Assembly (NCBI GenBank): GCA_035528415.1
Contig: DATKYQ010000044.1
Span: 4,473 to 68,472 of the forward strand
Direction of reading: 5' to 3'
Length of the DNA stretch: 64,000 nt
Source: Myxococcota bacterium
Lineage (GTDB): Bacteria > Myxococcota > B64-G9
Shown: positions 46,303-63,561 of the stretch, piece after piece
How positions within the stretch are numbered: position 1 is the stretch's first letter
Layout of the letters: each line of letters begins with the position of its first letter
Program-made: the position numbers and the translations under genes
The notes under the pieces: generated by a model
Databases searched by the model: none
Told to the model about the DNA's origin: nothing
The model's input: the letters and a program-made list of their open reading frames with translations, nothing else

Positions 46303-47748
46303 TCAGTTCCCCTTCTGGCCGGCAGACTGGCCGGTGGCGATGGCCACCGAGGCCGAGGCGCCGATACGCGTGGCGCCGGCCGCCACCATGGCCTCGGCCG
46401 TCTGACGATCCTTGATGCCTCCCGAGGCCTTGACGCCCATCTCGGGCCCGACCGTCTCGCGCATCAGGGCAATGTCCTCGACTGTGGCCCCGCCCCCGCC
46501 GAAGCCGGTCGAGGTCTTTACGAAATTCGCCCCGGCCATCTTGGCCAGCAGGCAGGCCTTGACGATCTCCTCCTTGGCGAGCAGGGCGGTCTCGAGGATC
46601 ACCTTGACCAGCGCCTGGCCGCGGGAGGCGTTGACGACTCCCTCGATGTCCCGGCGCACCAGTTCGTCGTCACCCGATTTCAGGGCCCCGACGTTGATGA
46701 CCATGTCGATCTCTCTGGCCCCGTTGGCGATGGCGTCGCGTGTCTCCATGGCCTTGGACGTCGGTGTCGTCGCGCCCAGCGGAAAGCCGATCACTGTGCA
46801 AACCTTGACGTCGCTGCCGGCCAGCAACCGGGCGCACAAGGCCACCCGACCGGGATTGACGCACACCGAGGCGAAGTGGAACTGCCTGGCCTCGGCGCAC
46901 AATTTATGAAACTGATCTTCGGTGGCGTCCGGCTTGAGCAGGGTGTGATCGATCATGCGGCTGATGTCGCCTGAGACAGGCTGCGCCCCAATCGAGGATC
47001 CAACACGCGCGGCGCCGCCTTCTACCAGCTTGCTGACCGCCTCTGGGTTGTTCTCGATGCACAGCCCGCAAGAGCTGCACTCGCCGATGGTCGCCAGCGT
47101 GCAAGCCGGGTTGGGCTTTTGCTCGCCCGTAACGGGATCGACGATTGTTCCCGGGCCGGTCATTTTATCGACGTCGCACAGGCACACGCCCAGCGCCGCA
47201 AGCTGTTTCTCGATGTCGGCGATCTTTTGCCTGACGGCGGCCGGCGCCGCGGCCGGCTCGATCTCGGCGGCAAACAGCGAGTCACGCGCGGCCACCACCG
47301 TGATTCCGCGCATCAGTCCATAGATTGCCAAGATGCAAACCAGGCTGTCGGGCAGCATGGTCAGCAGCTTCGAAGCTGCGTTGAGCGACATGTTCGGCAG
47401 GTAGATTACACCGACGCCGTCGAGCAACTTCCAGACGTCGCCCTCGGTGAGAACCTCGGCTTCGGGGGCGGCCCGGCGTACGGCCGGCACGCCGACAATC
47501 TTCTGCGCCGAGGAAGAGAGAACCACCTTGCAGTCCTCGCAGCAGTCGCAGATCTTGCCTACTTGCGAAAGCGCCTCTGTGAGCCTGCGGTTGCCGCCGG
47601 TGAGCAGGACCAGCACGCGTTTGCCCTTGGGCGTCGCGGGCGGTATCCAGCCGCTGTCCATTCTCTTCTCGCCTTCCGTGGACGGGGACGGCCCCAGCCG
47701 TTTGATCACTTCCGCGGATATCCTGCGAACCAGATCGTCGGAATCCAT
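46303..47748 (-). CDS. deoC: Fusion protein: N-terminal Cys-rich domain of unknown function with putative encapsulation peptide + C-terminal deoxyribose-phosphate aldolase
   Basis: C-terminal half has DERA landmarks ([28 protein letters not shown] with Schiff-base Lys, VKASGGI); N-terminal 250 aa start with the amphipathic [15 protein letters not shown] and contain CDCCEDC and CSSCGLC. Confidence 0.8.
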
Positions 47749-47889: not shown

Positions 47890-48177
47890 TTACTTGCCGG
47901 CGGTCTTGGGCAGGATGCCTTCCACGTCGCCGTGCGGACGCGGGATGACATGCACCGACACCAACTCGCCGACCTTCTTGGCCGCCACCGCGCCGGCTTC
48001 CACCGCGGCCTTGACCGCGCCGACGTCGCCGCGCACCATGACGGTCACGAACCCGCCGCCGATGAACTCCTTGCCTACCAGGGACACCTTAGCTGCCTTG
48101 ACCATTGCGTCGGCCGCCTCGATTGCGCCCACCAAGCCTTTGGTCTCGATCATTCCCAGCGCTTCTTTCGACTCCAC
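47890..48177 (-). CDS. BMC shell hexamer protein (BMC-H, PduA/EutM/CcmK family)
   Basis: 95 aa; GTG start; canonical Pfam00936 sequence [26 protein letters not shown] ... VHVIPRPH. Confidence 0.95.
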
Positions 48178-48509: not shown

Positions 48510-48977
48510 CTACCCTTCCCGAACGCGATTCTCGACCGCGGTGATCTTGTCGAGCCTTTGCTGGTGCCGTCCACCGGCATAGTCGGTCTCAAGCCAGAGC
48601 TTGGCCAGATCCTTGGCCAGGCCCGGGCCGAGAACTTGTCCGCCCAGGCAGAGCACGTTGGCGTCGTTGTGCACCCGGCTGCTCTTGACACCGAAGGCAT
48701 CGTATCCGGCAATCGCCCTGATACCCGGCAGCTTGTTGGCCACGATGGCGCTGGCCTGCCCTATGCCGTCAATCATGATGCCCCGGCAATCCGCGGAAAC
48801 CCGCGAAGCTCCGGCCACGGCCTGCGCCACCAAAAAGGCGAAATCGGGATAATCGCAAGCATCCTTCCCGTGACAGCCGAAGTCGCGCACCTCGTGCCCA
48901 AGTTCCACCAGAAATGTCTTCAGCGACTCTTTCAGTTGGTAGCCACCGTGGTCGCTGCCGATAAAAATCTTCATCAC
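48510..48977 (-). CDS. rpiB: Ribose-5-phosphate isomerase B (RpiB/LacAB family)
   Basis: MMKIFIGSDHGGYQLKESL ... GIMIDGIGQASAIVANK ... NDANVLCLGG landmarks; 155 aa. Confidence 0.9.
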   Translation of the reverse strand: MMKIFIGSDHGGYQLKESLKTFLVELGHEVRDFGCHGKDACDYPDFAFLVAQAVAGASRVSADCRGIMIDGIGQASAIVANKLPGIRAIAGYDAFGVKSSRVHNDANVLCLGGQVLGPGLAKDLAKLWLETDYAGGRHQQRLDKITAVENRVREG

Positions 48978-49843
48978 GCCTTCTCCCGGGCCGTAATGGC
49001 GATGATTTCACTCAACGCTTCGGGATTCAAGCCCGCTCCTCCCACCAGGAAACCGTCGCAGTCCGGCATTCGCGCAAGATCCCCGGCGCTGCCGACACCG
49101 ACGCTGCCCCCGTAGAGCAGGCGCGACCGTTCGGCCCAGGCATGTGAAAACAACTCGCCCAACCTGTCGCGGATGAAAACCAGGGCCTCCTGGACCTGGG
49201 AGGGCGAGGCGACCAGTCCGCTGCCGATGGCCCAGATCGGCTCGTAGGCCACTACGATCTCCTGCGGATCGGGTGCCGGCTGCCCCAGCCCGGAAAGCGC
49301 CAGCGTGAGCTGGGCGCGCAGCACGCGGAAGGTCGCGCCCCGCTCGCGCTCTTCAAGCCGCTCGCCGACGCACAGAACAGGAGTCAGGCCTGCGGACAGC
49401 GCGGCGAGCAGCTTGCGGCGCACCAGTTCGTCGTCCTCGCCGGCCGCCCGGCGCTCGGAATGTCCCACGATCACGTAGCTCGCGCCGGCATCCTTTATCA
49501 TCTCGGCGCTGTGCTCCCCTGTATGCGCGCCGGAGTGTTCCGGGTGCAGATCCTGGGCGCCCAGGCTGACATGCGTGCCGTTGGAGAGCGCGCCGCGCAA
49601 CACCGGCAGCAGCACCAGCGGCGGGCACAACAGCGTGTCCACTCCGCTGTCCGCGTGAGGATTCAGTTTGGCCGCGTAGCGCCGCGCGTCCTCGGCCAGC
49701 AAGTTCATTTTCCAGTTGGCGGCGATCAGCGGCCGGCGACCGCCGCTGGCGGATAACCGATGTATATCTGCATCGCCCGCGGCCATGGTCTCGTAGACCA
49801 CCTGGCGCACCACCCGTTCCACTCTGTCCCGCAGGTCGCTCAC
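48974..49843 (-). CDS. tpiA: Triosephosphate isomerase with N-terminal extension of about 30 aa (candidate encapsulation peptide)
   Basis: IAANWKMN, VIVGHSERR, AYEPIWAIGSG, GGSV TIM landmarks; GTG at 49843 (GGGGAGGG RBS 9 nt upstream; overlaps the upstream BMC-P stop as GTGA) gives MSDLRDRVERVVRQVVYETMAAGDADIHRLSASGGRRPL before the IAANWKMN core; alternative start is the internal ATG around 49786. Confidence 0.8.
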   Translation of the reverse strand: MSDLRDRVERVVRQVVYETMAAGDADIHRLSASGGRRPLIAANWKMNLLAEDARRYAAKLNPHADSGVDTLLCPPLVLLPVLRGALSNGTHVSLGAQDLHPEHSGAHTGEHSAEMIKDAGASYVIVGHSERRAAGEDDELVRRKLLAALSAGLTPVLCVGERLEERERGATFRVLRAQLTLALSGLGQPAPDPQEIVVAYEPIWAIGSGLVASPSQVQEALVFIRDRLGELFSHAWAERSRLLYGGSVGVGSAGDLARMPDCDGFLVGGAGLNPEALSEIIAITAREKA

Positions 49844-50157
49844 TTGTGTGCACCCTCCCCGGCCGGCGCCTCGAGCGCCAGGCGTTCGCCGCGCACCCGG
49901 ACCTGATCGATCACCCCAACGATGATCGCTTCGCAAGGCGCGCTATCGCTGCCGAGCACCTGCCGGGCGCTCTTGCCTTCCTCGACCACCAGGACGTAGT
50001 CACCAACGCCCGCCTGGGCGGCGTCGATGGCGATAAAAGCAGGATCGGTCTGCCGCCCCTTGCTGTCGATCGGGCCGACGAACATCAGCTTACAGCCGAC
50101 ATGATCCGGATGCTTGACTGTCGCAACCAGCGACCCGATGACCCTCGCGATTTTCAA
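49840..50157 (-). CDS. BMC vertex pentamer protein (BMC-P), copy 2
   Basis: 105 aa: MKIARVIGSLVATVKHPDHVGCKLMFVG ... AIIVGVIDQV. Confidence 0.9.
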   Translation of the reverse strand: MKIARVIGSLVATVKHPDHVGCKLMFVGPIDSKGRQTDPAFIAIDAAQAGVGDYVLVVEEGKSARQVLGSDSAPCEAIIVGVIDQVRVRGERLALEAPAGEGAHK

Positions 50158-50186: not shown

Positions 50187-50750
50187 TCACAACAACTTCG
50201 CAACCAGGTCGGGATGCGGGGCCGGGATCACGGTCGTAGCCAACAGCAAGCCGTGATCGCGGGCCGCACGCTGTCCGGCCTCGACGGCCGCCCTGACGGC
50301 GGATACCTCGCCGGTCAGCAGCACATAGCCCTTGCCTCCCAGTGCCCGGGCCAGACGGATCTCGAGCAAGTCGACCCGGGCGCTCTTGACCGCCTGGTCG
50401 CCGGCGATGATCGCCGCAGCCAGCGAAAAAGTCTCGATCACTCCCAGGGCGGCGATGCCGGCCGGCACGGTCGTAGCGCTGAAGGCATCGAGTACCTGCG
50501 GATGAACGTTGGGAATGACGATCTCGTCCACTAAGCTGTCTCTGGCCTCGGTCTTCCCGGCCGCGACCGCGGCCTGCGTATCGGCCACCGCTCCACCGAT
50601 GATTGTCAGGTACTTGCCCGGGCAGACCGGGCTGGAAAACAGCAGACGCACCCGGGCGGCCTTGAGCATGGCATCAGCCGCCCGGATTCCCGTGACCACG
50701 CTGCTGGTCTCGACACAACCAATCGCCTGCTCATTTTTTTTCTCGACCAC
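50187..50750 (-). CDS. BMC tandem-domain shell protein (BMC-T, PduT-like)
   Basis: 187 aa with two BMC domains (AIGCVETSSVVTGIRAADAMLKAARV and ALGVIETFSLAAAIIAGDQAVKSARV). Confidence 0.85.
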   Translation of the reverse strand: MVEKKNEQAIGCVETSSVVTGIRAADAMLKAARVRLLFSSPVCPGKYLTIIGGAVADTQAAVAAGKTEARDSLVDEIVIPNVHPQVLDAFSATTVPAGIAALGVIETFSLAAAIIAGDQAVKSARVDLLEIRLARALGGKGYVLLTGEVSAVRAAVEAGQRAARDHGLLLATTVIPAPHPDLVAKLL

Positions 50751-50753
50751 GGT

Positions 50754-52106
50754 TTACTCCACGTCGATGGTGACGGCCGTCGGACTGACTTCGGCCACCC
50801 GTCCGGCAAGGCCGGTGTGTACGCATGCGCCCAGAGCGTCCCCGGGGACCTCTCCCAACAGCTCTCCGGCCGCTACATTCTGGCCGGCTTCTACCACGGC
50901 CTGTGCCGGCTGGCCGGCATGTTGCTTCAACGGTATGGTCAGGCGCGTCAGCTCGATTTCAAATGCAGCCCGGGGCGCCGGGCGATCGTAGGCGTCTAGG
51001 CCCAGGCGGGCAATCAGGCGTTTGGAAGGCACCCTGCGTAACGGACTGAATTCGCGTTCCGCCGATGTCACCGCCGGCTGCGGGCGAGGCATCCCGGCTT
51101 CCGTAAGTCGCCCTACAAACTCTTTGTTCATGGCGCACGGGTCGAGATTCATCACACAACCATAGGCCGTACATAACCCGCAGCCTGAGCAGAGAAAGGC
51201 CCCCGTGTAAGCCTGCAGATCCTCGCTCACGCTCGCGGCCAGGTTACGCATCAGTCGGTCGGGATAGAGCCGGTGGCCAAGCAAGTTGCGCGGGCAAATT
51301 TCGGTGCACAGCATGCACTTCAGACAAGCCGAGCGCGCCAGGTGAATTTGGCGCTCGACTGTCCGCCGTCGACGTGTGACCTGCGGGTGATCCGCGGGAA
51401 GCACGAGCATAAGGCTTGTGGTCTTGGTTACTACTGAGGAACTCTCGTCCACGATCGAACCCATCATCGGCCCGCCGGAAATGACTACTGCCGATTCGCA
51501 GGCTGCTCCCCCGGCCGCTTCCAGCAGAGCCGACAAGGGAGTTCCAAGCGGCACGCGGAAGGTGGCCGGGCTCCCGACCGCGCCCGCCAGGCTGACGTAG
51601 CGGTGCGTGACAGGCTGCCGGCCGTCGACGGCCGCGGCCACATCGATCAGGGTAGAGACATTCGACACCACGGCGCCCACCGCGAGCGGCAGGCCGAACT
51701 CGGGAATTACACGATCGAGCACCTCGCGTACCAGCACAAACTCGTCCCCGGCCGGGTAAAAGTCATCCAGCAGGCGCAACTCAATCTTCTCGCCAATATT
51801 GCCGAGTTTGATTGCCTCGCCGAGCGCATCGATCGCTGGGGCGTATTTTTTCTTGAGCGCCACGATCCCGCGCCGGGCACCGGTGATCTCCATGGCGATC
51901 TGCAGCCCGCGCAGCACCTCGCGGGGCTTCGAGGCCATGCGCTGCTGGTCGACCCGCGCCAGCGGCTCACACTCGGCCCCGTTACCGATGACTACCTCCA
52001 CCTGCGCTGCATACTTGACATGGGTGGGGAAACCCCCGCCTCCGGCGCCGACCACGCCGGCCGTGCGAATTCTTTCGAGCCACTCTTTTACAGAACCATG
52101 GACCAA
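50754..52106 (-). CDS. PduS-like RnfC/NuoF-family Fe-S flavoprotein (BMC-associated oxidoreductase)
   Basis: GAGGGGFPTHVK nucleotide-binding N-terminus; SLBB-like region; two 4Fe-4S motifs CLKCMLCTEICP and CSGCGLCTAYGC; 450 aa. Confidence 0.8.
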   Translation of the reverse strand: MVHGSVKEWLERIRTAGVVGAGGGGFPTHVKYAAQVEVVIGNGAECEPLARVDQQRMASKPREVLRGLQIAMEITGARRGIVALKKKYAPAIDALGEAIKLGNIGEKIELRLLDDFYPAGDEFVLVREVLDRVIPEFGLPLAVGAVVSNVSTLIDVAAAVDGRQPVTHRYVSLAGAVGSPATFRVPLGTPLSALLEAAGGAACESAVVISGGPMMGSIVDESSSVVTKTTSLMLVLPADHPQVTRRRRTVERQIHLARSACLKCMLCTEICPRNLLGHRLYPDRLMRNLAASVSEDLQAYTGAFLCSGCGLCTAYGCVMNLDPCAMNKEFVGRLTEAGMPRPQPAVTSAEREFSPLRRVPSKRLIARLGLDAYDRPAPRAAFEIELTRLTIPLKQHAGQPAQAVVEAGQNVAAGELLGEVPGDALGACVHTGLAGRVAEVSPTAVTIDVE

Positions 52107-52117
52107 GCCAGCTCCTC

Positions 52118-53587
52118 TCAGACGATCCTGAAGGCCCCGGCCAGCACGCAGCGGCGCTGCCTGGTGAACGTGCGCGCCGAGGTCAGGCCCTCGCCGGTGG
52201 GGCCGGCGATGCTCAGCGTGGTAAAACCCTCGCCGCCGAATCCCAGCCCGGCGTAGGAGGGAGCGTTCTTGACGAAGATGGTGGTCTCGATCTCGCGGGC
52301 CACCAGGCTCATGTTGCTGACGCTCTCCGAGTGCATCATTGCCGAGTGCCGGTTGCCATGCTCGGCCTGCTTGGCCTTGGCAAGCGCAGTGGTGAGATCG
52401 GGCACTGCAACGATCGGCAGGATAGGCATCAGCATCTCGGCCTGCACCAGGGGATGCTCGAAGGGCACCCGGCAGATCACCAGGCGCGTATCGGGACCGG
52501 CCGTGAGGCCGATCTGATCCAGCAAGACCGAGGCGTCTTTGCCGACGAACTTCTTGTTGGGGTGCGGGTGAGGCCGGCCGGGCTCGACCAGCACCGAGGT
52601 GATCTTATCGACATCGTCGCCCGAGATCAGACGCGCTCCATAGGTAATCATCTCATCGATCAACCTGTCGGCGACGTTTTCTAAAACCAGCACCTCTTTC
52701 TCGGCCGTGCACAGGACGTTGTTGTCGAACGATGCCCCGTCGACGATACAGCGGGCGGCCTTGCGGATATCGGCGGTGTCGTCGACGATAACCGGCGGGT
52801 TTCCCGGTCCGGCCGCGACCGCCTTCTTGCCGCAGGTCATGGCCAGCCTGACCACCTCGCCCCCACCGGTGACCATCAATAACCGGATGCCGGGATGCAT
52901 CATGATCGCCTGCGATGTCTCCAGGCTGGGCTGGGCGATAGAACACAGCAGCGTCTCGGGACCGCCGGCAGCATGGATGGCCTTGTTCAGAAGACTCACG
53001 GCCTCGTTGCTCACCCCCTTGGCCAGCGGGTGAGGATTGAAGACCACCGCGTTGCCGGCCGCCACCATCGAGATGCCGTTGTTGATCACGGTGGCCACCG
53101 GGTTTGTGCAAGGGGTAACGGCGGCGACGACACCGTAGGGCGCCGGCTCAACAAGCGTCAAGCCGTCGTCGCCCGTGTAACACATCGGCGTCAGGTCTTC
53201 CACTCCCGGTGTCTTGCGGGCCGCCAGCAGGTTCTTCTGCACCTTGTGCTCGGCGCGCCCGAAACCCGTCTCGGCCACAGTCTTGCGCGCCAGGTCCTCG
53301 GCCATCTCGATGCCCGCCTGCCGCATAGCCTTGATGAACACCCGGCGGCGTTCGAGAGACACGCCCGAGAATGCCTGGTAGGCGGCCCCGGCGGCGGCGA
53401 TGGCCTCTTCCATCGTCTCGAAGACGCCATTCGCAGTTGACCCGCCATTTTGCGCGCCGGCCCGCGGCTCGCAAATAAGTGACCGCGGACGTGGTTCTGC
53501 AACAGGCTGCGAATCGCCGTTCGTCACTCGCCTGACGATCTCGGTCACCAGCCGCTCGATCTCTTTTTCGTTCACCGGAATGGTCAT
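52118..53587 (-). CDS. CoA-acylating aldehyde dehydrogenase (PduP/EutE family) with N-terminal encapsulation peptide
   Basis: N-terminal amphipathic EKEIERLVTEIVRRV; ALDH superfamily body with catalytic Cys region NNVLCTAEKE; 489 aa. Confidence 0.9.
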   Translation of the reverse strand: MTIPVNEKEIERLVTEIVRRVTNGDSQPVAEPRPRSLICEPRAGAQNGGSTANGVFETMEEAIAAAGAAYQAFSGVSLERRRVFIKAMRQAGIEMAEDLARKTVAETGFGRAEHKVQKNLLAARKTPGVEDLTPMCYTGDDGLTLVEPAPYGVVAAVTPCTNPVATVINNGISMVAAGNAVVFNPHPLAKGVSNEAVSLLNKAIHAAGGPETLLCSIAQPSLETSQAIMMHPGIRLLMVTGGGEVVRLAMTCGKKAVAAGPGNPPVIVDDTADIRKAARCIVDGASFDNNVLCTAEKEVLVLENVADRLIDEMITYGARLISGDDVDKITSVLVEPGRPHPHPNKKFVGKDASVLLDQIGLTAGPDTRLVICRVPFEHPLVQAEMLMPILPIVAVPDLTTALAKAKQAEHGNRHSAMMHSESVSNMSLVAREIETTIFVKNAPSYAGLGFGGEGFTTLSIAGPTGEGLTSARTFTRQRRCVLAGAFRIV

Positions 53588-53600
53588 GAACTCAACCTCG

Positions 53601-53891
53601 TTACTTGGCGAAAGTCTGCCGCCCGCCGATGTCGATAAAATCTACTATGGCCACAATGGTCGCGTCGACCGGCGAATCATGGGTGGTGTCGGTCAGCCTC
53701 GACGATGAGCCCTGAACCACCAGCACTATCTCGTCCTCGCCGGCCCCGACTGAATCCACGGCTACCAGTTGTTTGCCGCTGGCTTCCTGTTTCTCGAAAT
53801 CGACCGGATCGACGACCAGCAGCTTGGTTCCGGAAAGCTTCTCGGATTTCCGTGTGCTGACTACGTTTCCTACAACTCGCGCAAGAAACAT
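53601..53891 (-). CDS. BMC vertex pentamer protein (BMC-P), copy 3
   Basis: 96 aa: MFLARVVGNVVSTRKSEKLSGTKLLVVD ... ATIVAIVDFI. Confidence 0.9.
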   Translation of the reverse strand: MFLARVVGNVVSTRKSEKLSGTKLLVVDPVDFEKQEASGKQLVAVDSVGAGEDEIVLVVQGSSSRLTDTTHDSPVDATIVAIVDFIDIGGRQTFAK

Positions 53892-53935: not shown

Positions 53936-54703
53936 TCACACATCCAGCTTGACGATCTCAATGCCGAGATCGCGCGCCCGGCTTTCCGCCATAGGCGTCA
54001 CGATGGTGCCCGCGGGCAGCGTAAGTTGGCGTTCACCCGCCCGCGCCAGTTGTTCTACGTCGTCCTCCGTCACAAGCCCGTCGAAAGAGCGGGCCCGCGT
54101 GGTACCGGACGTCCCGATGTGTTCGATCAGCCCCGCTATATCGGCCGCGGCTACAGGCTGCAACCCCAGCGTGTCCAGGTCACGCAAAATGCTTGCGGCC
54201 TCGGCCCCCGTCTGACCCCGTGCGCCCAACCCGGACGGTCGCAGATCGTCCGTGACCAGGGCCACGCGCCGCCCGGCCAGAAGAGCCTGACTGACCAGCC
54301 TGACGAAGGGCTGCCCATCGCGCCTGTCAATCAGCGCCCGGGCGTGCTCGAAGCCGATACTGCCCACCAGCACCAGGTCATCGCGGCCGATCTCGCCAAG
54401 CGCATAGCTTAAGTCCGCCTCCGAAAAAGCGGAGATATCGCCGCCCAACTTCCCGCGCAAGCCCCCGCTATCGATGTCGCCGAGCAGGGCTGACTCACAG
54501 AGTACCCTCACGCGCGCGCCGCCTGCGACCAGGGGTGCCAGTTGGTCTGCCAGGATCCCGAGGTTTGCCGAGGCCACTGGCAACACCACGAGGATTCGCG
54601 GTGCGTGGCCCGCTGGGGGCAAACTCGCGGGGGACCCCAAGCGCGCCAGAACACGTCCGGTGATTTCCTCAATCAGGCGCTCGATTTCCTTGTCGTCTGC
54701 CAT
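53936..54703 (-). CDS. BMC-associated protein of unknown function with N-terminal encapsulation peptide
   Basis: N-terminus MADDKEIERLIEEITGRVLARL nearly repeats the aldehyde dehydrogenase EP (KEIERL); 255 aa; C-terminal TEDDVEQLARAGERQLTLPAGTIVTPMAESRARDLGIEIV block; no confident family assignment. Confidence 0.6.
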   Translation of the reverse strand: MADDKEIERLIEEITGRVLARLGSPASLPPAGHAPRILVVLPVASANLGILADQLAPLVAGGARVRVLCESALLGDIDSGGLRGKLGGDISAFSEADLSYALGEIGRDDLVLVGSIGFEHARALIDRRDGQPFVRLVSQALLAGRRVALVTDDLRPSGLGARGQTGAEAASILRDLDTLGLQPVAAADIAGLIEHIGTSGTTRARSFDGLVTEDDVEQLARAGERQLTLPAGTIVTPMAESRARDLGIEIVKLDV

Positions 54704-54720: not shown

Positions 54721-55413
54721 TTACCGAATCGTCACACCGCCGGCCGTGTAATCACAGAAGGGACGCGTGTTGCCACCCTCGGTGCTCTGGGAGGCAAGGC
54801 ATCCCTCGCGGCCGCACAGGTCAAGGCACAGGCTTGGGACAACCTCGACCCGGCTGCCTGCTACGACTCCCGCCGCGTTGCCCTCATCGGTGTCCAGGTG
54901 CAACTCGGTCAGAAATTTGTCGCTCACCCGCACGACGATTTCATCGAAGATCAGCGAGCGCGGCCCCGGAAAGTGAACATACACCTTCTGGCCGTTTGTT
55001 ACTCCGAGCCTGCGGGCGTCCTGCGGTGTCGCGTGGATGTGGCGCACGGCGCAGATGCAGCCCGAGTTCAGCCGAACCGCCCCGCGGGGTCCAATCAGAT
55101 CGGCGCCCGGTGTGCCCGCCAGGTCGCCGGACAGGCGCACGGGCACGTTTATACCCAAGGCAACCCCGTCGCTTACCGACAACTCCACCTGGCTCGCGCC
55201 GCGGGGAGGGCCGAGAATTCGCACCCCGGGAATCGAGCGCCGCGGTCCGACGACCTCCAGCGTCTCGCGCGCGGCATACTGGCCCGGCTGGGACAAGGCG
55301 GACACAGGGGTCAGGCGGTAGCCGTGCCCGAAAAGCTCTTCCACATGCCGATCAGACAGGTGAACGTGCCGGGCCGAGAGGGCGACCGGGATGGTGCGAT
55401 CTCCGTTTTCCAT
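54721..55413 (-). CDS. pduL: Phosphotransacylase PduL (phosphate propanoyl/acetyltransferase)
   Basis: Two PduL-type repeats with metal-binding His motifs: SARHVHLSDRHVEELFG and ICAVRHIHATPQDARRLGV; 230 aa. Confidence 0.85.
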   Translation of the reverse strand: MENGDRTIPVALSARHVHLSDRHVEELFGHGYRLTPVSALSQPGQYAARETLEVVGPRRSIPGVRILGPPRGASQVELSVSDGVALGINVPVRLSGDLAGTPGADLIGPRGAVRLNSGCICAVRHIHATPQDARRLGVTNGQKVYVHFPGPRSLIFDEIVVRVSDKFLTELHLDTDEGNAAGVVAGSRVEVVPSLCLDLCGREGCLASQSTEGGNTRPFCDYTAGGVTIR

Positions 55414-56033: not shown

Positions 56034-56251
56034 GTCTTCCTCCTCCGAGGTTTTTGTACCCCGTCCATACGGGACACCAAGAACTTCATCCCGTATAACC
56101 GGGCAATCTATATCCACGACAAGTCGCCACAGTATCCCTCCCCGGAACGAATTTCAAGTATGTTCTTTCCGTCATCGAGAAACTGCGGACTTGAACGAAA
56201 CCGCCTTTCCCCCTAGTGTTATATGGAACAGAAAAAAGGGGAGACGATCTC

Positions 56252-59200
56252 ATGATCACAGAGAAACCAGGCAGGCTATCTTTGTCCCGCGCTTTCTTGC
56301 TGCCGGCGCTTGCCGGCCTGTTGTTGTCGGCCTGCGGCTCGGACAAGGCAGGCTCGAAGTGCGGCGACTGCTCCACGCTCGACGGGCCCTGCAGCCAGGG
56401 AGCCTGCAACGAAGACACCCGCGAGTGCTTCGCCGATGCGATTAACGAGGGCACCGACTGCAGTGACGGCGACAAGTGTACACTCGACGACAGCTGTCAG
56501 GCCGGGCAGTGTGTGGGCACGCCCATGGAGTGCACCGAGCAGGTGTCCGAGTGCGTGGCCGGTGTGTGTGACAAGGGCGAGTGCACATACCCAGCTCGGC
56601 CGGACGGCACGGCCTGCATCAGCAAGACAGATGAGTGCAACGACGGCCAGTGCCTGGCCGGCGAGTGCAGCGCCGTTGTGAAAGCCGACCAGACACCCTG
56701 CAACGACGGCGACTGGTGTACCACCCCCGACAGTTGCGCAGCCGGCGTCTGCGATGGTACGGCACGCAACTGCTCGGACGGTCTCGACTGCACCAGCGAC
56801 TCGTGCGACCCGGATCGTAACGCCTGCGGCTACCAGGTGGCCGCAGACAACTGCCTGATCGCCGGCAACTGTTTCGCGGACGGTGACCCCAACCCGGACA
56901 ATTCCTGCCAGGAATGCGCTGCCGCCATGAACCAACAGGACTGGTTCAACGATGACAGCAACGCCTGCGATGACGGCAACCTGTGCACGGATCCGGATGG
57001 GTGCACGGACGGGGTATGCTCGGGAACGCCCGTTTCCGGCTGCTGCCTTGCCGACGGCGATTGCGGCGACGGCAAGGACTGCACTACTGATGTCTGCAAC
57101 ACGGCGGACGGCACCTGCACGAACGGCGTCGATGCCGGATATTGTCTGATCGGCGACCTGTGCGTTACCGACGGCACCCTCAACCCGGCCAATGCCTGCC
57201 AGTCCTGTATCGCTGTGACAAACCAGACCGGCTGGGCGGACAACAATGATCCCTGCGACGACGGATTGTACTGCACAACGGACGACCATTGCGGCGGCGG
57301 ATCGTGCCAGGGCACCAGCGGCACGATCTGCGATGACGGCGTAGACTGTACCGACGATGTCTGCAACGAATCGGCCCAGAGTTGTTCTCATGCGCCCTCT
57401 GCCGGCCAGTGCCTGATCGGCGGCACCTGCTTCGCGGCGGGAGCACTCAACCCGAACAACGACTGCCAAGAGTGTATTCCGGCAGGCAGCCAGACAGACT
57501 GGAGCGCCGACGACAGCAACACCTGCGACGACGGAAACAACTGCACCGACTCCGACCACTGCAGCGCAGGCACCTGCACCGGAACGCCCATTCCCAACTG
57601 TTGCACCAGCGACGCGGAATGTAACGACAACCTGGATTGCACCAGCGACAGCTGCACGCTGGCCACAGGCGCCTGCACAAACTCCGTCAATGCCGGCCAG
57701 TGCCTGATCGCGGGCGCCTGCTACGCCAACGGAATTCCCAACCCCAACAACAACTGCCAGGCCTGCGCGGCAGGCACTGTCCAGGACACCTGGTCGCCGG
57801 CCAACGAAGGCGCCGAGTGCGGCGGGATCTGCCAGGCATGCCAGGGTGGAACATGCGCAAACATGCCCGACACGGGCGACGCCGATCCCTTCGGCGAATG
57901 CCCGCCCTGCCGCGTGTGCGACGGGTCCGGCGGCTGTCGTAACGCCCAAAACGGCACCGACCCCAAGAACGACTGCCAGGCGGCCGAGTGCGTCTTCGAC
58001 GTTTGCCAGGCAGGCTCCTGCAACATGACATCGGGCACGCAGTGTACCGACAGCGACCAAGGCGACTGCAACGACGCCCAGTGCAATAGCCTGGGCACTT
58101 GCCTGCAGGACTTCGCCTACGAGGCATCCGGCTACGCCTGCGATGACGCAGACGCCTGTACCACTCCAGATCAGTGCGACACGTTGGGACAGTGCGCGGG
58201 CGCTGCACTGGCGCCCGATCCCGATCCCGATTCGGTTGTTTCGGCAACCAGCGCCTGCCTGACCTACTCCACGAACTCCCGCACGGTAGTCAGCGTCGCC
58301 CTGAACGACACGGGCGGAACCCCGATCGGCGCCGCCACGGTGACCATCGAGGCCGACGACGCAGGCATCAGCTGGAGCGGCCCGGTCGTAGAATCGGCCG
58401 TTGCGCCGGGAGTCTACTTCCGCGTCATGCAAACCCCGGCGGCGCAGATTCCGGGCGACGACACCGTGGTATCGGTAAGCGCGCATTCGGGGTCTGGCGC
58501 CTGTCAGTCTTCCGAGGAAGCAATGAACACGACCGCAACTATCGTCTTCGCCGCGCAGACCGCGGCGGGAGCCGCGGCCGGCACCGGCGGCTGCCCGATC
58601 GACAACAATCTCAGGGTGCGCGTCATTGACGCCCGCGATTCGAGCCCCATAGCCGGCGCCTACGTCATGGTGGGCCTCGCCCCTGGCGACGTTTTCGAAG
58701 ACGACTTCGAGCAAGTCCTTTCGGGCGCGGCCAGCCTGACAAACGCCGGGCGGGCCGATACCGGCGGGATGATTGAGTTCGAGGACCAGGGCACGGCCCT
58801 GGATGGGCCGCAGATTGTAACAGCCGGTTTCGACAACATGAGTTACACGAGCATGGTCGACGTCGACGCGGCCGACATCGTCATCTCGCTGACCCCTATT
58901 AGCGCCATCCCGGCCATGGCGAAGATCGCGGGCTCGGTGACCGGGTTGCCGATCGTAAGCTACGACGACATCGTCAATGCGGCCATGGTTATCAACCAGT
59001 TCAATATGGACAGCCTGGTCAAGTTCAGGTTCGACGATCTGCTGGCCCAGGAGGAAGACTGCTGGCTGGCGGCCTCCATCTTTCTGCTGGGCGACCAGTG
59101 GGCGTCCATGCCGGCCAACATCGACGTTCCCCAGCAAACCGAGAGATATATCTTTCCCGTGACTATCAACCCGCACTTCTACCAAACCGTCCCGCTCGAG

Positions 59201-60148
59201 GTGGGATCCGTCGATCAACATATAGTGGCGCTGGGCGGAACGGTGCCCTTCGGCGATATCGTCAATATCCTGATGAACGGCGGCAGCCTGGCAGGCCTCG
59301 TCAACTTGCTCAGTGTGGACCGCATCGGCCTGATCACCCGAAACCAGATAAGCGGCAACGAGAACAACGTCTCCATCGCAGCCGACACGGCGCTCAACGC
59401 CAATATAAGCTGCGCGATTTCGAACAAACCGGTTTCCCTTTCGGGAAGCGATGACCTGTGCCTGACCTTAGGCGACTGGGACGGTACGCTGGGCGACGGC
59501 CCTATGTTCATCATGGGATTCCGGGCGCTTTCGGGAGGTTCCGGCATGCTCAGCAACGTGCCCGGCTCGGGCGCCTTTTCCGGAATCGGCCGCTTAGGAA
59601 TGGCAGTTTTGGCCTATCTCGATTCGAGCACTTTACCCGGCGGCGACGAATGGAAAAGCGGGGCCACCTCGGGCATCCTCGACCGCTCGGGCAGCTTGAG
59701 CCCGTCCGGCGGCGCCTTGGATTTCGACAACGACTTTCTGGAGATCACGCCGCTGAACCGCTCCGGCAGAAGCTTCCAGTGGAACCAGGTGTCGACGGCC
59801 AATACTCAGGCGCACTTTTCTGAACACGACATCGACCTGATCGAGTCGACAACCACCTGGATCGGCTCGGAGTGCGATGACGTCACCGAGGATGTCTGGC
59901 GCAACACCTATTGGAGAATATTGGCCCCGGCCGGCACGACCTCTTTCAACCTGCCCAATCTGCCCGCCGGCTGGCCGCGCGCCGCCGACGGCGGGCTGGC
60001 CGCCCCGGGCGCCGACGAACGTTTCAACTGGTCGTTCTCGGCCCTGCACATGCAGCCGCTTTCGGCATCCTTCGATTTCAACCATTTCGACTTCGCCGCA
60101 GCGCTCGGACTCGCCACCCATACATCCAGCAACAGCACAGATTTCTGA
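56252..60148 (+). CDS. Giant (about 1300 aa) lipoprotein with N-terminal Cys-rich repeats (about 10 units) and large Cys-free C-terminal domain
   Basis: ATG 56252 with GGGGAG RBS; lipoprotein signal LSRAFLLPALAGLLLSAC; repeats C-x-DG-x-x-CT-x-DD-x-C-x-AG-x-C and CDDG[NL]xCTD; C-terminal 650 aa devoid of Cys. Confidence 0.75.
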   Translation: MITEKPGRLSLSRAFLLPALAGLLLSACGSDKAGSKCGDCSTLDGPCSQGACNEDTRECFADAINEGTDCSDGDKCTLDDSCQAGQCVGTPMECTEQVSECVAGVCDKGECTYPARPDGTACISKTDECNDGQCLAGECSAVVKADQTPCNDGDWCTTPDSCAAGVCDGTARNCSDGLDCTSDSCDPDRNACGYQVAADNCLIAGNCFADGDPNPDNSCQECAAAMNQQDWFNDDSNACDDGNLCTDPDGCTDGVCSGTPVSGCCLADGDCGDGKDCTTDVCNTADGTCTNGVDAGYCLIGDLCVTDGTLNPANACQSCIAVTNQTGWADNNDPCDDGLYCTTDDHCGGGSCQGTSGTICDDGVDCTDDVCNESAQSCSHAPSAGQCLIGGTCFAAGALNPNNDCQECIPAGSQTDWSADDSNTCDDGNNCTDSDHCSAGTCTGTPIPNCCTSDAECNDNLDCTSDSCTLATGACTNSVNAGQCLIAGACYANGIPNPNNNCQACAAGTVQDTWSPANEGAECGGICQACQGGTCANMPDTGDADPFGECPPCRVCDGSGGCRNAQNGTDPKNDCQAAECVFDVCQAGSCNMTSGTQCTDSDQGDCNDAQCNSLGTCLQDFAYEASGYACDDADACTTPDQCDTLGQCAGAALAPDPDPDSVVSATSACLTYSTNSRTVVSVALNDTGGTPIGAATVTIEADDAGISWSGPVVESAVAPGVYFRVMQTPAAQIPGDDTVVSVSAHSGSGACQSSEEAMNTTATIVFAAQTAAGAAAGTGGCPIDNNLRVRVIDARDSSPIAGAYVMVGLAPGDVFEDDFEQVLSGAASLTNAGRADTGGMIEFEDQGTALDGPQIVTAGFDNMSYTSMVDVDAADIVISLTPISAIPAMAKIAGSVTGLPIVSYDDIVNAAMVINQFNMDSLVKFRFDDLLAQEEDCWLAASIFLLGDQWASMPANIDVPQQTERYIFPVTINPHFYQTVPLEVGSVDQHIVALGGTVPFGDIVNILMNGGSLAGLVNLLSVDRIGLITRNQISGNENNVSIAADTALNANISCAISNKPVSLSGSDDLCLTLGDWDGTLGDGPMFIMGFRALSGGSGMLSNVPGSGAFSGIGRLGMAVLAYLDSSTLPGGDEWKSGATSGILDRSGSLSPSGGALDFDNDFLEITPLNRSGRSFQWNQVSTANTQAHFSEHDIDLIESTTTWIGSECDDVTEDVWRNTYWRILAPAGTTSFNLPNLPAGWPRAADGGLAAPGADERFNWSFSALHMQPLSASFDFNHFDFAAALGLATHTSSNSTDF

Positions 60149-60212: not shown

Positions 60213-62396
60213 ATGCCGGTGGAACACATGACGGACGAGGGGCAGGAGCCCCAGATCGATCTGCGCGATTACTGGAACGTGGTCCTGAAGCGCAAGTGGA
60301 CGGTGCTGGCTTTCTTCGTGGTGATCGTCACATTGGTCACCATCTTCACCCTGCGTCAAACCAAGATCTACGAGGCGAAAGCCTCGGTGGTCATCGAGCC
60401 CTACGCCCCGCAGGTACTCGGCAACGTCAGGGAGGTGTACAACCTGGGTGCGGGATCCTACTGGAGCAATAAGGAGTACTACGAGACCCAGTACAACGTA
60501 ATCACCAGCCGTACCGTGGCCCTGAAGGTCGTGCAGTTGCTCAGGCTCGAGGGCAACAAGGAATTTCTTGGAATCGACAAGCTGGCCGCGGACGACCAGA
60601 AAAGCTTTATGGAGAATTCTATCAACTATGCCGACCTGGTCCGCGGCATGCTAGAGGTGGAGCCGGTCAAGGACAGCCGCACGGCCTACATCAAGGCCCG
60701 CCACCGCTCTCCCAAGTGGGCCCCGCGAATCGCCAACGCGGCAGTCAACGCTTACATCGATTACAACCGCCAGACCCGGCGCAAGGTCACCCAGGACGCC
60801 GCCGGCTGGCTTGGCAGCCAGGCCAGCGTATTGAAGAAACAGATGGAGACCGGCGAGCTGAAGCTATACGAGTTCAAGAAGAGCAACAAGATCCTCTCGG
60901 TTTCGCTGGAAGATCGTCAGAATATCACTTCCCAGCGGCTGCAGGATCTCAACCAGACCATCAACCGCGTCCAGGCCGAGCGCATCACCCTCGAAGGCAG
61001 GCGCAAGCAGATTCTCGACGTCAAAGAGAACCGCCTGCCGCTGGACTCGGTAGACAAGGTAATCAGCAACAGCCTGATCCAGCAACTGAAGGAATCCTAC
61101 GTTAAATTAAAAGAGCAGAAGACCGAGCTGGGCGCCAAGTACCTGCCCGACCATCCGCGCTACAAGGTGATCGAGAACAAGCTCAAGCTCATTCGCAACA
61201 ACATCGACCGGGAGATTGCCAACGTCATGGAGAGCCTCGAGTCCGAGTACCGGGCCAAGCAGGATAGCGAGGCGTCGCTGCGCCGGGAGTTAACCAAGGT
61301 TAAGAGCGAGGCTCAAGATATCAACAAGAGAGAACTCGGCTACAACCGGCTAAAGCGGGTCGCCGACAATTACGCCACCCTGTACAAGCATGTGCTGACG
61401 CGCCAGAAGGAAGCCGGCCTGGCCGCCCACCAGGAAACCAATAACATCTACAAACTCGACTCGGCGATCGAGCCTTTATTTCCCGTCTACCCACGCGTCA
61501 AGCTCAACATCCTGCTGGCGGTCGTGGTCGGGCTGCTGGGCGGAATCGGACTGGCATTTTTCCTGGAGTATCTCGACAACACCATAAAGAACCAGGAAGA
61601 CGTGGAGCGCTACTTGCAGGTTCCCTTCCTGGGCATCATCCCCAGTATCAAGCTGGACCCACACACCGAAGAAGGACAGGACACCCCCCAGCGGGACACT
61701 TACCTTATCAGCCATCCCAAGAGCTCGGTGGCCGAGTGCTGTCGCACGGTACGCACCAATATCCTGTTCATGTCTCCGGAGAAGCCTTCCCGCCGAATCC
61801 TGGTGACGTCCGCCGGCCCCCAGGAGGGCAAGAGCACCGTGGTGATCAACCTGGGCACGACCATGGCCCAGAGCGGTTCAAAGGTGCTGCTGATCGACAC
61901 AGACATGCGCCGCCCCCGGCTGCACAAGGCCTTCGGCATCGAGCGCGGCACCGGGCTGACCACCGCCATTCTCGGCGAGGCCGAGATCGACGACGTCATC
62001 CAGCAAACTGAGGTGCCGGGCTTGCGCGTGATGCCCTGCGGCCCGATCCCCCCAAATCCCACCGAGTTGTTCCACACCGAGCGCTTCGCCCAAATCGTCG
62101 CTGAACTGGAGGAAAAGTACGACCGGGTCATCTTCGACAGCCCGCCGGCCGTGATGGTCGCCGATGCACTGATTCTCTCGCGCATGATGGACGGTGTGAT
62201 CATGGTGATCAAGGGAGGCCACACCTCACGGGACATGGTCAGGCGGGCTCTTCGGCAGTTGCAAGACGTCAACGCGCGCATCCTGGGCACGGTGATCAAC
62301 GATCTGGATCTCGAGCAGCGCGAGTACGGCTACTACTACTATCGCCAATACGGCTACTACTACGGAGAGAAAGAAGGCGATGCCACCAATAGTTGA
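60213..62396 (+). CDS. Polysaccharide co-polymerase / tyrosine autokinase (Wzc/EpsB-like BY-kinase)
   Basis: N-terminal TM plus Wzz-like periplasmic coiled-coil domain, second TM (ILLAVVVGLLGGIGLAFFLEY), Walker A GPQEGKST, Walker A-prime and B (VLLIDTDMRRP, VIFDSPP), C-terminal Tyr cluster YGYYYYRQYGYYYGEK. Confidence 0.85.
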   Translation: MPVEHMTDEGQEPQIDLRDYWNVVLKRKWTVLAFFVVIVTLVTIFTLRQTKIYEAKASVVIEPYAPQVLGNVREVYNLGAGSYWSNKEYYETQYNVITSRTVALKVVQLLRLEGNKEFLGIDKLAADDQKSFMENSINYADLVRGMLEVEPVKDSRTAYIKARHRSPKWAPRIANAAVNAYIDYNRQTRRKVTQDAAGWLGSQASVLKKQMETGELKLYEFKKSNKILSVSLEDRQNITSQRLQDLNQTINRVQAERITLEGRRKQILDVKENRLPLDSVDKVISNSLIQQLKESYVKLKEQKTELGAKYLPDHPRYKVIENKLKLIRNNIDREIANVMESLESEYRAKQDSEASLRRELTKVKSEAQDINKRELGYNRLKRVADNYATLYKHVLTRQKEAGLAAHQETNNIYKLDSAIEPLFPVYPRVKLNILLAVVVGLLGGIGLAFFLEYLDNTIKNQEDVERYLQVPFLGIIPSIKLDPHTEEGQDTPQRDTYLISHPKSSVAECCRTVRTNILFMSPEKPSRRILVTSAGPQEGKSTVVINLGTTMAQSGSKVLLIDTDMRRPRLHKAFGIERGTGLTTAILGEAEIDDVIQQTEVPGLRVMPCGPIPPNPTELFHTERFAQIVAELEEKYDRVIFDSPPAVMVADALILSRMMDGVIMVIKGGHTSRDMVRRALRQLQDVNARILGTVINDLDLEQREYGYYYYRQYGYYYGEKEGDATNS

Positions 62397-63561
62397 AGAT
62401 CCGGCGGGCGGCGAGATTCCGCTTCTGGATCTGAGATCCCAGCACCGGCAAATACAGGCGGAAATATTGGCGGCCATCGGCCCGCTGATCGAGCGACAGC
62501 GCTTCATCAACGGCCCGGAGGTGGCACAGTTCGAGTCGGGAGTGGCCGACTACCTGGGAGTCGAGCACGCGATCGGAGTGTCGTCGGGCACGGACGCCCT
62601 GCTGGCCGTGCTCATGGCTCTCGGGGTCGGGCCCGATGACGAAGTCATCACTACCCCCTTCTCTTTCATTGCGACAGCCGAGGTCATCCTGCGCCTGGGG
62701 GCTCGGCCTGTTTTCGCGGACGTCAGCGGCGAGAGTTGTCTCATTCGGCCGTCAGCCGTGCGCAAACTCCTCACCAACCGCACGCGGGCGATCATCCCGG
62801 TGCACCTGTACGGCAAGGTGTGCCAGATGGACGAATTTCTCGATCTTTCGGCCGAACGCGGTATTCCGATCATCGAGGATTGCGCCCAGGCCATGGGAGC
62901 CAGGCAGAACGGACGGGCCGCGGGATCGTTCGGGCTGGCCGGCGCTTTCAGTTTCTTTCCCTCGAAAAATCTCGGGGGCTGGGGCGACGGGGGAATGCTG
63001 ACCACCAATGACGCCGCGCTGGCGCATAAGTTGCGCAGCATTCGCGAGCACGGCGCCGACGACGACATGCGCTACTCTCTTTTGGGCGGCAACTTCCGCC
63101 TGGACACCATCCAGGCCGCTGTTTTAAGCGTCAAGCTCGGGCACCTCGACCAGTGGCTGCAGGCCAGGAAGACGGCGGCGCAGTACTATATCCAGCTCAT
63201 GGTTGAGGCCGGCCTGTCCGCAGGCCAGAACGAGACCCGGCACCCGGGCCATCAACTTCTTCCGCCTCCGGTTTGGGACGAGCCGGATCACGCCTTCAAC
63301 CTCTTCGTCGTCCGGGCGGAGAGACGCGACGCATTGAAGACACACCTCGACTCGGCGGGAATAGGCTGCGCCGTCTACTACCCCACTCCGTTGCACCTGC
63401 AGCCGTGTTTCGCAAAGTTAGGTTACCGCCCGGGGGACTTCCCGGCCGCCGAGGAGGCGGCCCGCAGCGTACTGGCCCTGCCTCTGTACCCCGAGATCGG
63501 CCGCGCCCAGCAAAAAAGGGTGGTGGAAGCCATAGCCGGGTTCTACCACGCCCGGGCCTGA
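62380..63561 (+). CDS. DegT/DnrJ/EryC1/StrS-family PLP-dependent aminotransferase (sugar aminotransferase)
   Basis: LDLRSQHRQIQAEI ... FINGPEVAQFE ... GVSSGTDAL ... ITTPFSFIATAE landmarks; PLP-Lys region FFPSKNLG; 393 aa. Confidence 0.9.
   Translation: MPPIVEDPAGGEIPLLDLRSQHRQIQAEILAAIGPLIERQRFINGPEVAQFESGVADYLGVEHAIGVSSGTDALLAVLMALGVGPDDEVITTPFSFIATAEVILRLGARPVFADVSGESCLIRPSAVRKLLTNRTRAIIPVHLYGKVCQMDEFLDLSAERGIPIIEDCAQAMGARQNGRAAGSFGLAGAFSFFPSKNLGGWGDGGMLTTNDAALAHKLRSIREHGADDDMRYSLLGGNFRLDTIQAAVLSVKLGHLDQWLQARKTAAQYYIQLMVEAGLSAGQNETRHPGHQLLPPPVWDEPDHAFNLFVVRAERRDALKTHLDSAGIGCAVYYPTPLHLQPCFAKLGYRPGDFPAAEEAARSVLALPLYPEIGRAQQKRVVEAIAGFYHARA

Follow-up and report, generated by a model that had tools for sequence, protein, structure and literature searches.

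In the window, by which we mean the whole 64,000-nucleotide stretch of DNA that was analyzed, every gene from position 55413 down to 44292 lies on the minus strand and is separated from the next by a short gap. These genes encode, in order, a PduL-type phosphotransacylase (PTAC), the protein studied here (the target), a BMC-P, an aldehyde dehydrogenase (AldDH), a PduS-like NADH dehydrogenase (PF01512 plus Fe-S domains) and a BMC-T, followed by a BMC-P, triosephosphate isomerase, RpiB, a BMC-P, a BMC-H and DERA, and finally by a second DeoC/LacD-family aldolase and a zinc-type alcohol dehydrogenase. The locus is a sugar-phosphate-utilising (SPU) microcompartment operon, a class defined by Axen 2014, Sutter 2021 and Dwyer 2024. 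Its gene content would place it nearest to subtype SPU4, for which PTAC, TPI and a BMC-P triplet are described; some SPU4 loci also have a PduS-associated BMC-T, and one member is deltaproteobacterial. A gene for EutQ was not found in the window. The target gene, its parts and the relevant neighbors are as follows.

54721..55413, minus strand: PduL-type phosphotransacylase, upstream neighbor of the target (PF06130, E 8e-71)
53936..54703, minus strand: whole target gene, stop codon included, encoding a 255-aa protein of the PduM/eut_hyp family
54635..54700, minus strand: putative encapsulation peptide (EP) of the target, an N-terminal amphipathic helix at residues 2-23 (AlphaFold2 helix, likeness to the AldDH EP, conservation)
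54599..54634, minus strand: flexible, poorly conserved linker of the target, residues 24-35 (pLDDT and conservation)
54101..54598, minus strand: alpha/beta domain of the target, residues 36-201, with a PF02441 (HFCD/UbiX/DpaB) flavoprotein fold in which the flavin motifs are replaced
53948..54079, minus strand: mini-domain of the target, residues 209-252, beta-alpha-beta-beta-alpha-beta, homologous to the EutQ N-terminal H1/H2 and the PduM C-terminus
53601..53891, minus strand: BMC-P pentamer protein, downstream neighbor in the PduN/EutN slot (PF03319, E 2e-30)
52118..53587, minus strand: aldehyde dehydrogenase (PF00171)
53522..53572, minus strand: EP of the aldehyde dehydrogenase, residues ~6-22 of that gene, sequence NEKEIERLVTEIVRRV
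50187-50750, minus strand: BMC-T with tandem BMC domains and a CPGK pore motif
47890-48177, minus strand: BMC-H, shell protein of the locus
46303-47748, minus strand: DERA signature enzyme, DeoC-type (TIGR00126, 1.1e-83)
47155..47748, minus strand: paralogous EP plus flavoprotein-like module on DERA, residues 1-198 of that gene (hhalign)

The target begins 17 bp downstream of the PduL gene and ends 44 bp upstream of the BMC-P gene, and the Pfam assignments of both neighbors (PF06130 and PF03319) agree with the placement given in an earlier note on this DNA. The 255-residue open reading frame of that note was likewise recovered at exactly 53936..54703, and it reads only on the minus strand, the plus strand of the same interval being riddled with stops. 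Homologs that start at the same residues back the start codon, and the sequence agrees with the earlier quotation both at the N-terminus (MADDKEIERLIEEITGRVLARL) and in the C-terminal block (TEDDVEQLARAGERQLTLPAGTIVTPMAESRARDLGIEIV). The protein has the same sequence (100% identity) as the entry 'hypothetical protein VM425_10580, Myxococcota bacterium', and a related-locus search with alignment A1 found its close genomic relatives only in two uncultured Myxococcales MAGs.

N-terminal EPs have been described on SPU AldDHs (PMC11585597), and the AldDH of this locus (52118..53587, minus strand) begins with MTIPVNEKEIERLVTEIVRRV. The best ungapped BLOSUM62 score between the N-termini of the target and the AldDH was 49, compared with 17.7 +/- 3.7 (maximum 44) for 3000 shuffles, none of which reached 49. 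Because this score is far higher than chance would give, the resemblance to the AldDH EP that had been pointed out earlier is real. EPs are recognized as terminal amphipathic helices of ~15-20 residues that a flexible linker of low conservation sets apart from the folded domain and that are missing from non-BMC homologs, and the target shows each of these properties. Residues 2-23 form a helix in the AlphaFold2 model (block pLDDT 87) with a hydrophobic i/i+4 stripe of L10, I14, V18 and L22, all four of which rank in the family's top 25 positions by conservation. The pLDDT falls to 57 for residues 21-30, and residues 24-35 are the least conserved region of the protein (0.86 bits per column). 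Finally, the helix has no counterpart in human PPCDC, TvaF or DpaB, since the alignments with these proteins begin at strand beta-1. An EP HMM built from the target's family also matched the N-terminus of DERA. Within-locus co-variation of the target and AldDH EPs gave no clear diagonal signal in five loci, and we therefore make no claim of co-evolution for the two peptides. The sequence and structural hallmarks behind the earlier proposal of an EP are thus all present. Since they are conserved across a family found in BMC loci, a location that is luminal, as first suggested, or shell-associated can reasonably be inferred, and the putative EP would function in encapsulation.

The AlphaFold2 model of the target, computed from an alignment of 62 sequences (A2), had a mean pLDDT of 90.8 and a pTM of 0.75 and consists of a helix (residues 2-23), a low-confidence linker (24-35), an alpha/beta domain (36-201), a short linker and a mini-domain (209-252). 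Fold comparison gave the highest figures for flavoproteins: 16.0 for DmrB/AfpA, 15.1 for HAL3, 14.9 for human PPC decarboxylase, 14.0 for TvaF, 13.7 for CoaBC, 13.3 for DpaB, 13.1-13.3 for UbiX and 12.9 for EpiD. Structure prediction and fold comparison therefore give a PF02441-type flavoprotein fold to a body in which no assignable motif had been seen, and the 'Rossmann-like LVVLPVA' segment singled out earlier corresponds to strand beta-1 of its alpha/beta domain. The target shares with PF02441 the Rossmann-like alpha/beta fold and falls short of the Pfam gathering score. A Pfam search of the target returned nothing, PF02441 included, even at E<=10; the control protein P0057 scored 32.7 bits on PF02441 against a gathering score of 22.7. 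PDB sequence searches gave as top matches designed repeat proteins (PPR and a designed TIM barrel), which are spurious because of repeats, and only marginal matches to flavoproteins.

The flavin/substrate motifs of PF02441 (G-x-T/S-G-S, S/T after beta-2, P-A-S/T-A-N-T and P-x-M-N) are not present in the target clade. They can be followed through A3, a distant subgroup that includes P0057 and retains 'FTGGTIGLE', 'vvLS-aAekivG' and 'lvPVLTQNTAAKLA-T-ADT'; in the A3 HMM these segments align with the TGS loop, VVTT and P-L-D-A-N-T-L-G-K / PAMN of human PPC decarboxylase (1qzu). The same columns in the target clade hold 'LLLP-x-x-S', non-conserved residues and 'GS-x-GF…DDDPFVRL…DDL', so that clade-specific, conserved acidic motifs (DDDP and DDL) occupy the former active-site position. 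From these replacements we infer that the target probably lacks canonical flavin binding, with the reservation that motif loss is no proof of flavin absence, because a degenerate first motif does not keep EpiD-type flavoproteins from binding FMN. A cytosolic housekeeping enzyme of the CoaC/UbiX/DpaB kind was rejected on the grounds that the motifs are lost, an EP is present and the family contexts are all BMC; neither membership in a cytosolic housekeeping family nor a showing that the N-terminus is something other than an EP emerged from the analysis.

Exhaustive HMMER searches, with an alignment of four relatives from a word-indexed search of the target as the query, found at least 226 cluster representatives of the target's family at E<=1e-3 and 33 at E<=1e-30, most of them ~250 residues long. 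Across the 62 aligned sequences, conservation was highest in the mini-domain (2.41 bits per column), followed by the EP helix (2.23) and the alpha/beta domain (1.57), and twelve mini-domain residues are among the family's 25 most conserved positions. The C-terminal block that the earlier note called conserved is accordingly the best-conserved part of the family. Relatives of 93, 113, 144 and 191 residues consist of the EP helix, a disordered linker and the mini-domain and have no alpha/beta domain, and one further relative consists of three tandem mini-domains. Within the window the mini-domain is found only in the target (80 bits), and a word-indexed search that used the mini-domain profile yielded no more than two proteins, both short.

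The family can be connected to TIGR02536 ('eut_hyp') of NCBIfam. The target itself matches this model weakly, at 20.9 bits against the curated cutoff of 152.6, and only residues 209-252 align, with the last 44 positions of the model. Among the aligned relatives, 41 of 62 match, with E values down to 8e-18 and over positions 22-206 of 207, which establishes the homology through intermediates. The target also has the genomic position of this group, in a BMC operon beside a PduL-type PTAC and a BMC-P; in C. difficile, for example, the order is EutD, CD1921 (annotated 'unknown function'), EutN and PduT.

All family contexts with enough flanking DNA proved to be microcompartment loci, and the commonest arrangement is PTAC-X-BMC-P, where X is the family member, that is, the pduL-pduM-pduN slot. 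In the window and in loci L001, L003, L004, L005, L006, L011 and L016, the family member has a PTAC gene upstream of it, directly adjacent in most; a BMC-H gene intervenes in L011 (PTAC-BMC-H-X-BMC-P-AldDH) and a BMC-P triplet in L016, a PVM-like locus in which the family member follows that triplet. The closer relatives in L003, L004, L005 and L006 lie in PTAC-X-BMC-P-AldDH-PduS-BMC-T blocks, and L003 is a full SPU locus syntenic with the window. P0057 occupies the pduM slot of a canonical pdu operon (pduA-B-C-D-E-G-H-J-K-L-[P0057]-N-O-P-S-T). Elsewhere, the family member adjoins BMC-T and CsoS1D-like genes (L015) or BMC-H (L014), and the 113-residue relative is encoded after a BMC-P triplet and before PduS/BMC-T.

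PduM has a structural role, and its loss upsets core-shell association and compartment size. A PduM profile of 17 sequences, all belonging to PF15953, matched the family by hhalign (92.5%, E 5e-7, 109 columns), with residues 118-254 of the target aligned to PduM 54-163. This alignment spans the second half of the alpha/beta domain and the mini-domain and is local, which is reflected in a value of 92.5% rather than 99%. The mini-domain profile alone matched the PduM profile at 93.6% (E 2e-7). Comparisons with single PduM sequences were weak (hhalign 57%; 9% against A3; phmmer at most 13 bits), and PF15953 (gathering score 27 bits) gave no match for the target, whereas E. coli PduM scores 136.7 bits; in the search made, PduM matches were confined to Enterobacteriaceae. 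The gene position is also common to the two, the window having PduL-X-BMC-P where E. coli has pduL-pduM-pduN. Because the profile match, the gene slot and the N-terminal helix coincide, we conclude that PduM is probably a truncated member of the target's family. The first 23 residues of PduM are a functional signal sequence for which targeting to the compartment has been shown, PduM(1-23) goes with the core and not the shell, and loss of PduM partly separates the core from the shell (PMC12108088). The same study states that PduM has no known homologs outside Pdu, and the 2021 catalogue keeps PF02441 (PvmL) and PF15953 (PduM) as separate families; no paper linking PduM to the target's family was found in our literature search.

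A second connection of the mini-domain is with EutQ. When the family was compared with E. coli EutQ by hhalign, residues 208-255 of the target aligned with EutQ 2-51 (89.5%, E 2e-6) in the common pattern L-(I/V)-T-x-x-D-(I/V)...(I/V)-(I/V)-T-P-x-A-R-x-x-A-x-x-L-G. In Salmonella EutQ, the shell-binding helices are H1/H2 (within residues 9-41) and those that bind cargo EPs are H3/H4, and shell and cargo dissociate when the N-terminal region is deleted (PMC12487888). The target therefore appears, by homology, to carry the H1/H2 shell-binding module, and by analogy its mini-domain may bind the shell; the protein ends after the mini-domain and has no C-terminal cupin (acetate kinase) domain. Compared directly, PduM and EutQ gave no significant match (0.4%, E 0.17), for which reason their connection is transitive through the target's family and a direct relationship is not claimed.

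The DERA of the locus has an N-terminal extension of ~260 residues, which hhalign aligned with the target's family at 99% (E 3.5e-18) and with the subgroup that keeps the flavin motifs at 99% (E 2.8e-18). This paralogous module comprises an EP and a flavoprotein-like domain and has no C-terminal mini-domain. The paralogy is seen by profile comparison alone, a BLASTP comparison of the target with DERA having returned nothing significant.

We favor, with moderate confidence, the interpretation that the target is a non-catalytic, long-form member of the PduM / TIGR02536 'eut_hyp' / BMC-flavoprotein family that serves as a cargo-shell tether. The EP, of the same type as those on the AldDH and DERA, would put the protein into the cargo core; the alpha/beta domain, devoid of flavin and substrate motifs, would probably be an oligomerization or spacer body; and the C-terminal mini-domain would dock the protein on the inner face of the shell. 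The target would then be a bivalent, possibly oligomeric adaptor that tethers the SPU enzyme core as PduM and the EutQ N-terminus do, a role extrapolated by analogy from these two proteins across very low sequence identity. Of the two possibilities raised earlier, a missing pathway enzyme or a scaffold, the scaffold is favored by the homology to PduM, the PduM slot and the EutQ H1/H2-like module. The missing enzyme, whether a kinase, a phosphatase or a cofactor-recycling activity, is disfavored by the replaced flavin/substrate motifs, the absence of a family match and the short relatives that do without the alpha/beta domain.

It is unlikely that the target instead organizes the cargo core, as an oligomeric hub that binds cargo EPs or the paralogous domain of DERA and nucleates a condensate in the manner of CcmN or CsoS2. 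Such a hub would fit the presence of the EP plus flavoprotein-like module on DERA, the trimers or dodecamers typical of PF02441 proteins, the binding of cargo EPs by EutQ H3/H4 and the association of PduM(1-23) with the core. However, the region of EutQ that aligns with the mini-domain is the shell-binding H1/H2 and not H3/H4, and the DERA paralog is limited to this SPU subtype whereas the family is pan-BMC.

A working flavoprotein, acting as a small luminal redox carrier for cofactor recycling together with the PduS-like NADH dehydrogenase (MNdh) and an Fe-S BMC-T(SE), seems distinctly improbable. The fold is that of a flavoprotein, distant family members keep the flavin motifs and pass the PF02441 threshold, PduS-like and CPGK-pore BMC-T genes lie three genes downstream of the target, PduS/BMC-T accompany the family in most contexts, and pfam02441 proteins have been raised as possible electron acceptors (PMC11626177). 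Against this, the target clade has other residues in place of all three flavin/substrate motifs, the target escapes PF02441 even at the permissive threshold, and the alpha/beta domain is partly or wholly missing from PduM and the 93-191 aa relatives, which nevertheless keep the EP and mini-domain; moreover, the acceptor proposed in the literature would be outside the shell, whereas the target carries an EP. Finally, it is very improbable that the old flavin pocket now serves a new enzymatic activity, such as that of a phosphatase, kinase or isomerase acting on sugar phosphates. The conserved acidic DDDP/DDL motifs at the former active site could bind a metal, substrate or ligand, but no enzyme family match supports the idea, and members of the target's family occur in BMC types whose substrates are unrelated. 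In particular, a kinase or phosphatase was rejected for want of a family match and of a HAD motif, with HAD folds ranking below all flavoproteins in the fold comparison.

The tether interpretation can be extended, tentatively and with more doubt than confidence, to the whole set of proteins considered here, such that PduM, eut_hyp, the BMC 'flavoproteins' and the EutQ N-terminus would form one ancient, pan-BMC class of tethers. Each member would combine an EP with a ~45-residue shell-docking mini-domain, and the class would go back to an encapsulated flavoprotein; its catalytic body would have degenerated repeatedly, leaving a domain without flavin in the target, half a domain in PduM and a bare linker in the 93-191 aa forms. 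In this locus the flavin-less body may, in addition, hetero-oligomerize with the DERA domain and so dock DERA directly under the shell.

Part of this picture is already on record. Supplementary Data 2 of Sutter et al. 2021 describes for SPU4 a eut_hyp-type, flavoprotein-related protein with an N-terminal EP, so that the central observation of the earlier note had been made before and its label 'unknown' no longer applies; the 2024 SPU paper contains no discussion of this protein. As far as our literature search found, the following points had not been made before: the flavin motifs are lost in this clade, the family is homologous to PduM, the C-terminal block can be identified as a module of the EutQ H1/H2 type, a series of minimal relatives is made of EP, linker and mini-domain, and DERA carries a paralogous module. 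The links of the family to PduM and EutQ are modestly new, and the target is a known kind of protein with a functional hypothesis attached rather than a new kind of system. Attachment of the core to the shell is the central open question in BMC assembly and the main obstacle to engineering. Pdu (PduM and the PduB N-terminus) and Eut (the EutQ N-terminus) are so far the only systems with defined attachment factors, and these have been treated as unrelated. If the target is indeed a PduM-family protein with an EutQ docking module, SPU compartments, which belong to the commonest and least investigated BMCs, would gain a candidate tether, and the pair of EP and mini-domain would offer a portable, minimal linker for synthetic compartments. 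The target is also dropped from the candidates for missing SPU pathway enzymes.

Comparison with known proteins places the target as follows. The HFCD/UbiX/DpaB/DmrB flavoenzymes (CoaC, EpiD, PPCDC, UbiX and dipicolinate synthase B) are only 8-15% identical to it, are encoded outside BMC loci and have neither an EP nor a C-terminal mini-domain, and their flavin/substrate motifs are missing in the target. The PF02441 flavoproteins of BMC loci (PvmL-type proteins and 'long PduM' such as P0057) resemble it in having the three modules, the same slot and a full-length alignment; unlike the target clade, they retain TGGTxG / S-x-A-A / PVLTQNTAAK and pass the Pfam threshold. The TIGR02536 'eut_hyp' proteins, such as C. 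difficile CD1921 and the SPU4 protein of Sutter et al. 2021, belong to the same family and occupy the same PTAC-X-BMC-P slot, and the target differs from them in being GC-rich, from Myxococcota and of a clade with its own motifs (GSxGF, DDDPFVRL and DDL). EutQ has its module at the N-terminus, ahead of the EP-binding helices and of a cupin acetate-kinase domain, whereas that of the target is C-terminal and is accompanied by no cupin. PduM (PF15953 'PDU_like', the structural protein of the Salmonella and E. coli Pdu compartment) shares with the target the gene slot and the N-terminal amphipathic signal/EP helix, and at 163 aa it lacks the first half of the alpha/beta domain that the target has.

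The DERA signature enzyme of the operon carries, in its N-terminal extension, a paralog of the 255-aa PduM/eut_hyp-family protein. The genes of the microcompartment operon considered here, together with those lying outside it, are:

45323-46111 (-), DeoC/LacD-family (class I-type) aldolase
46303-47748 (-), DERA signature enzyme with an N-terminal extension of ~260 residues
48510-48977 (-), RpiB
48974-49936 (-), TPI ORF
50187-50750 (-), BMC-T with pore motif VCPGK
50754-52106 (-), PduS-like protein (PF01512 + Fer4 + RnfC_N)
54721-55413 (-), PduL (PF06130 from residue 9)
56216-60148 (+), predicted secreted protein of 1310 aa
60213-62396, Wzz/tyrosine-kinase-like protein, assigned by eye
62380-63561, DegT-type aminotransferase-like ORF, assigned by eye

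DERA residues 1-198 (47155-47748, -) comprise an encapsulation peptide (EP) helix and a flavoprotein-like domain and are paralogous to the 255-aa protein, as indicated by hhalign comparisons of the extension with the family of that protein (99%, E 3.5e-18) and with its flavin-motif subgroup (99%, E 2.8e-18). The flavin motifs are partly kept in this module, and the C-terminal mini-domain of the family is absent from the extension. Past this module and ahead of the DERA barrel comes a four-cysteine motif, NPAC-x8-EC-x2-CGLC-(I/V)EN (residues ~205-235), which is also kept in the syntenic DERAs of loci L003 and L013 and may be an Fe-S or metal site.

Some other relatives of the 255-aa protein are much reduced or rearranged. 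Four of them (P0072, P0129, P0146 and P0133, from L010 and other loci; 93-191 aa) consist only of the EP helix, a disordered linker and the mini-domain, the linker in one case being a Gly/Ser-rich stretch of ~120 residues; the gene for P0129 follows a BMC-P triplet and precedes PduS/BMC-T. P0070 (198 aa) is composed of three tandem mini-domain copies, with neither an EP nor the alpha/beta domain. Since the family member P0096 (727-1509 of L015) is found in a BMC locus of a different kind, containing two CsoS1D-like BMC-T(dp) genes, a DAO-family oxidase, a Fer2_BFD protein and a TRAP transporter, the family reaches beyond the PDU, EUT and SPU types.

The slot occupied by the DeoC/LacD-family aldolase holds a class II aldolase (PF00596) in the syntenic SPU locus L003 (17466-18236), and the difference has the appearance of a non-orthologous replacement. 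Immediately beyond the operon, the 1310-aa predicted secreted protein contains many Cys-rich repeats of the C-x-D-G-x-x-C type, and its gene is followed by the two ORFs assigned by eye.

The BMC-T gene is directly downstream of the PduS-like gene, and the two correspond to the pair for electron export, MNdh/BMC-T(SE), that PMC11626177 describes. In the TPI ORF a long stretch precedes the TIM domain, with an EP-like helix, LRDRVERVVRQVVYETM, ~20 residues ahead of that domain. In contrast to the SPU RPIs of PMC11585597, which have an N-terminal extension, the RpiB of the window lacks one, and its C-terminal end is helix-like (RHQQRLDKITAVENRV). Although EPs have been predicted in the literature on SPU PTACs, the PduL of the window begins with its catalytic domain and has no N-terminal EP; EP-like N-termini are present on the PduLs of loci L006 and L001. 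Finally, the only DERA extension described in the 2024 SPU paper is that of SPU6, at ~70 residues, whereas that of the window DERA spans ~260.
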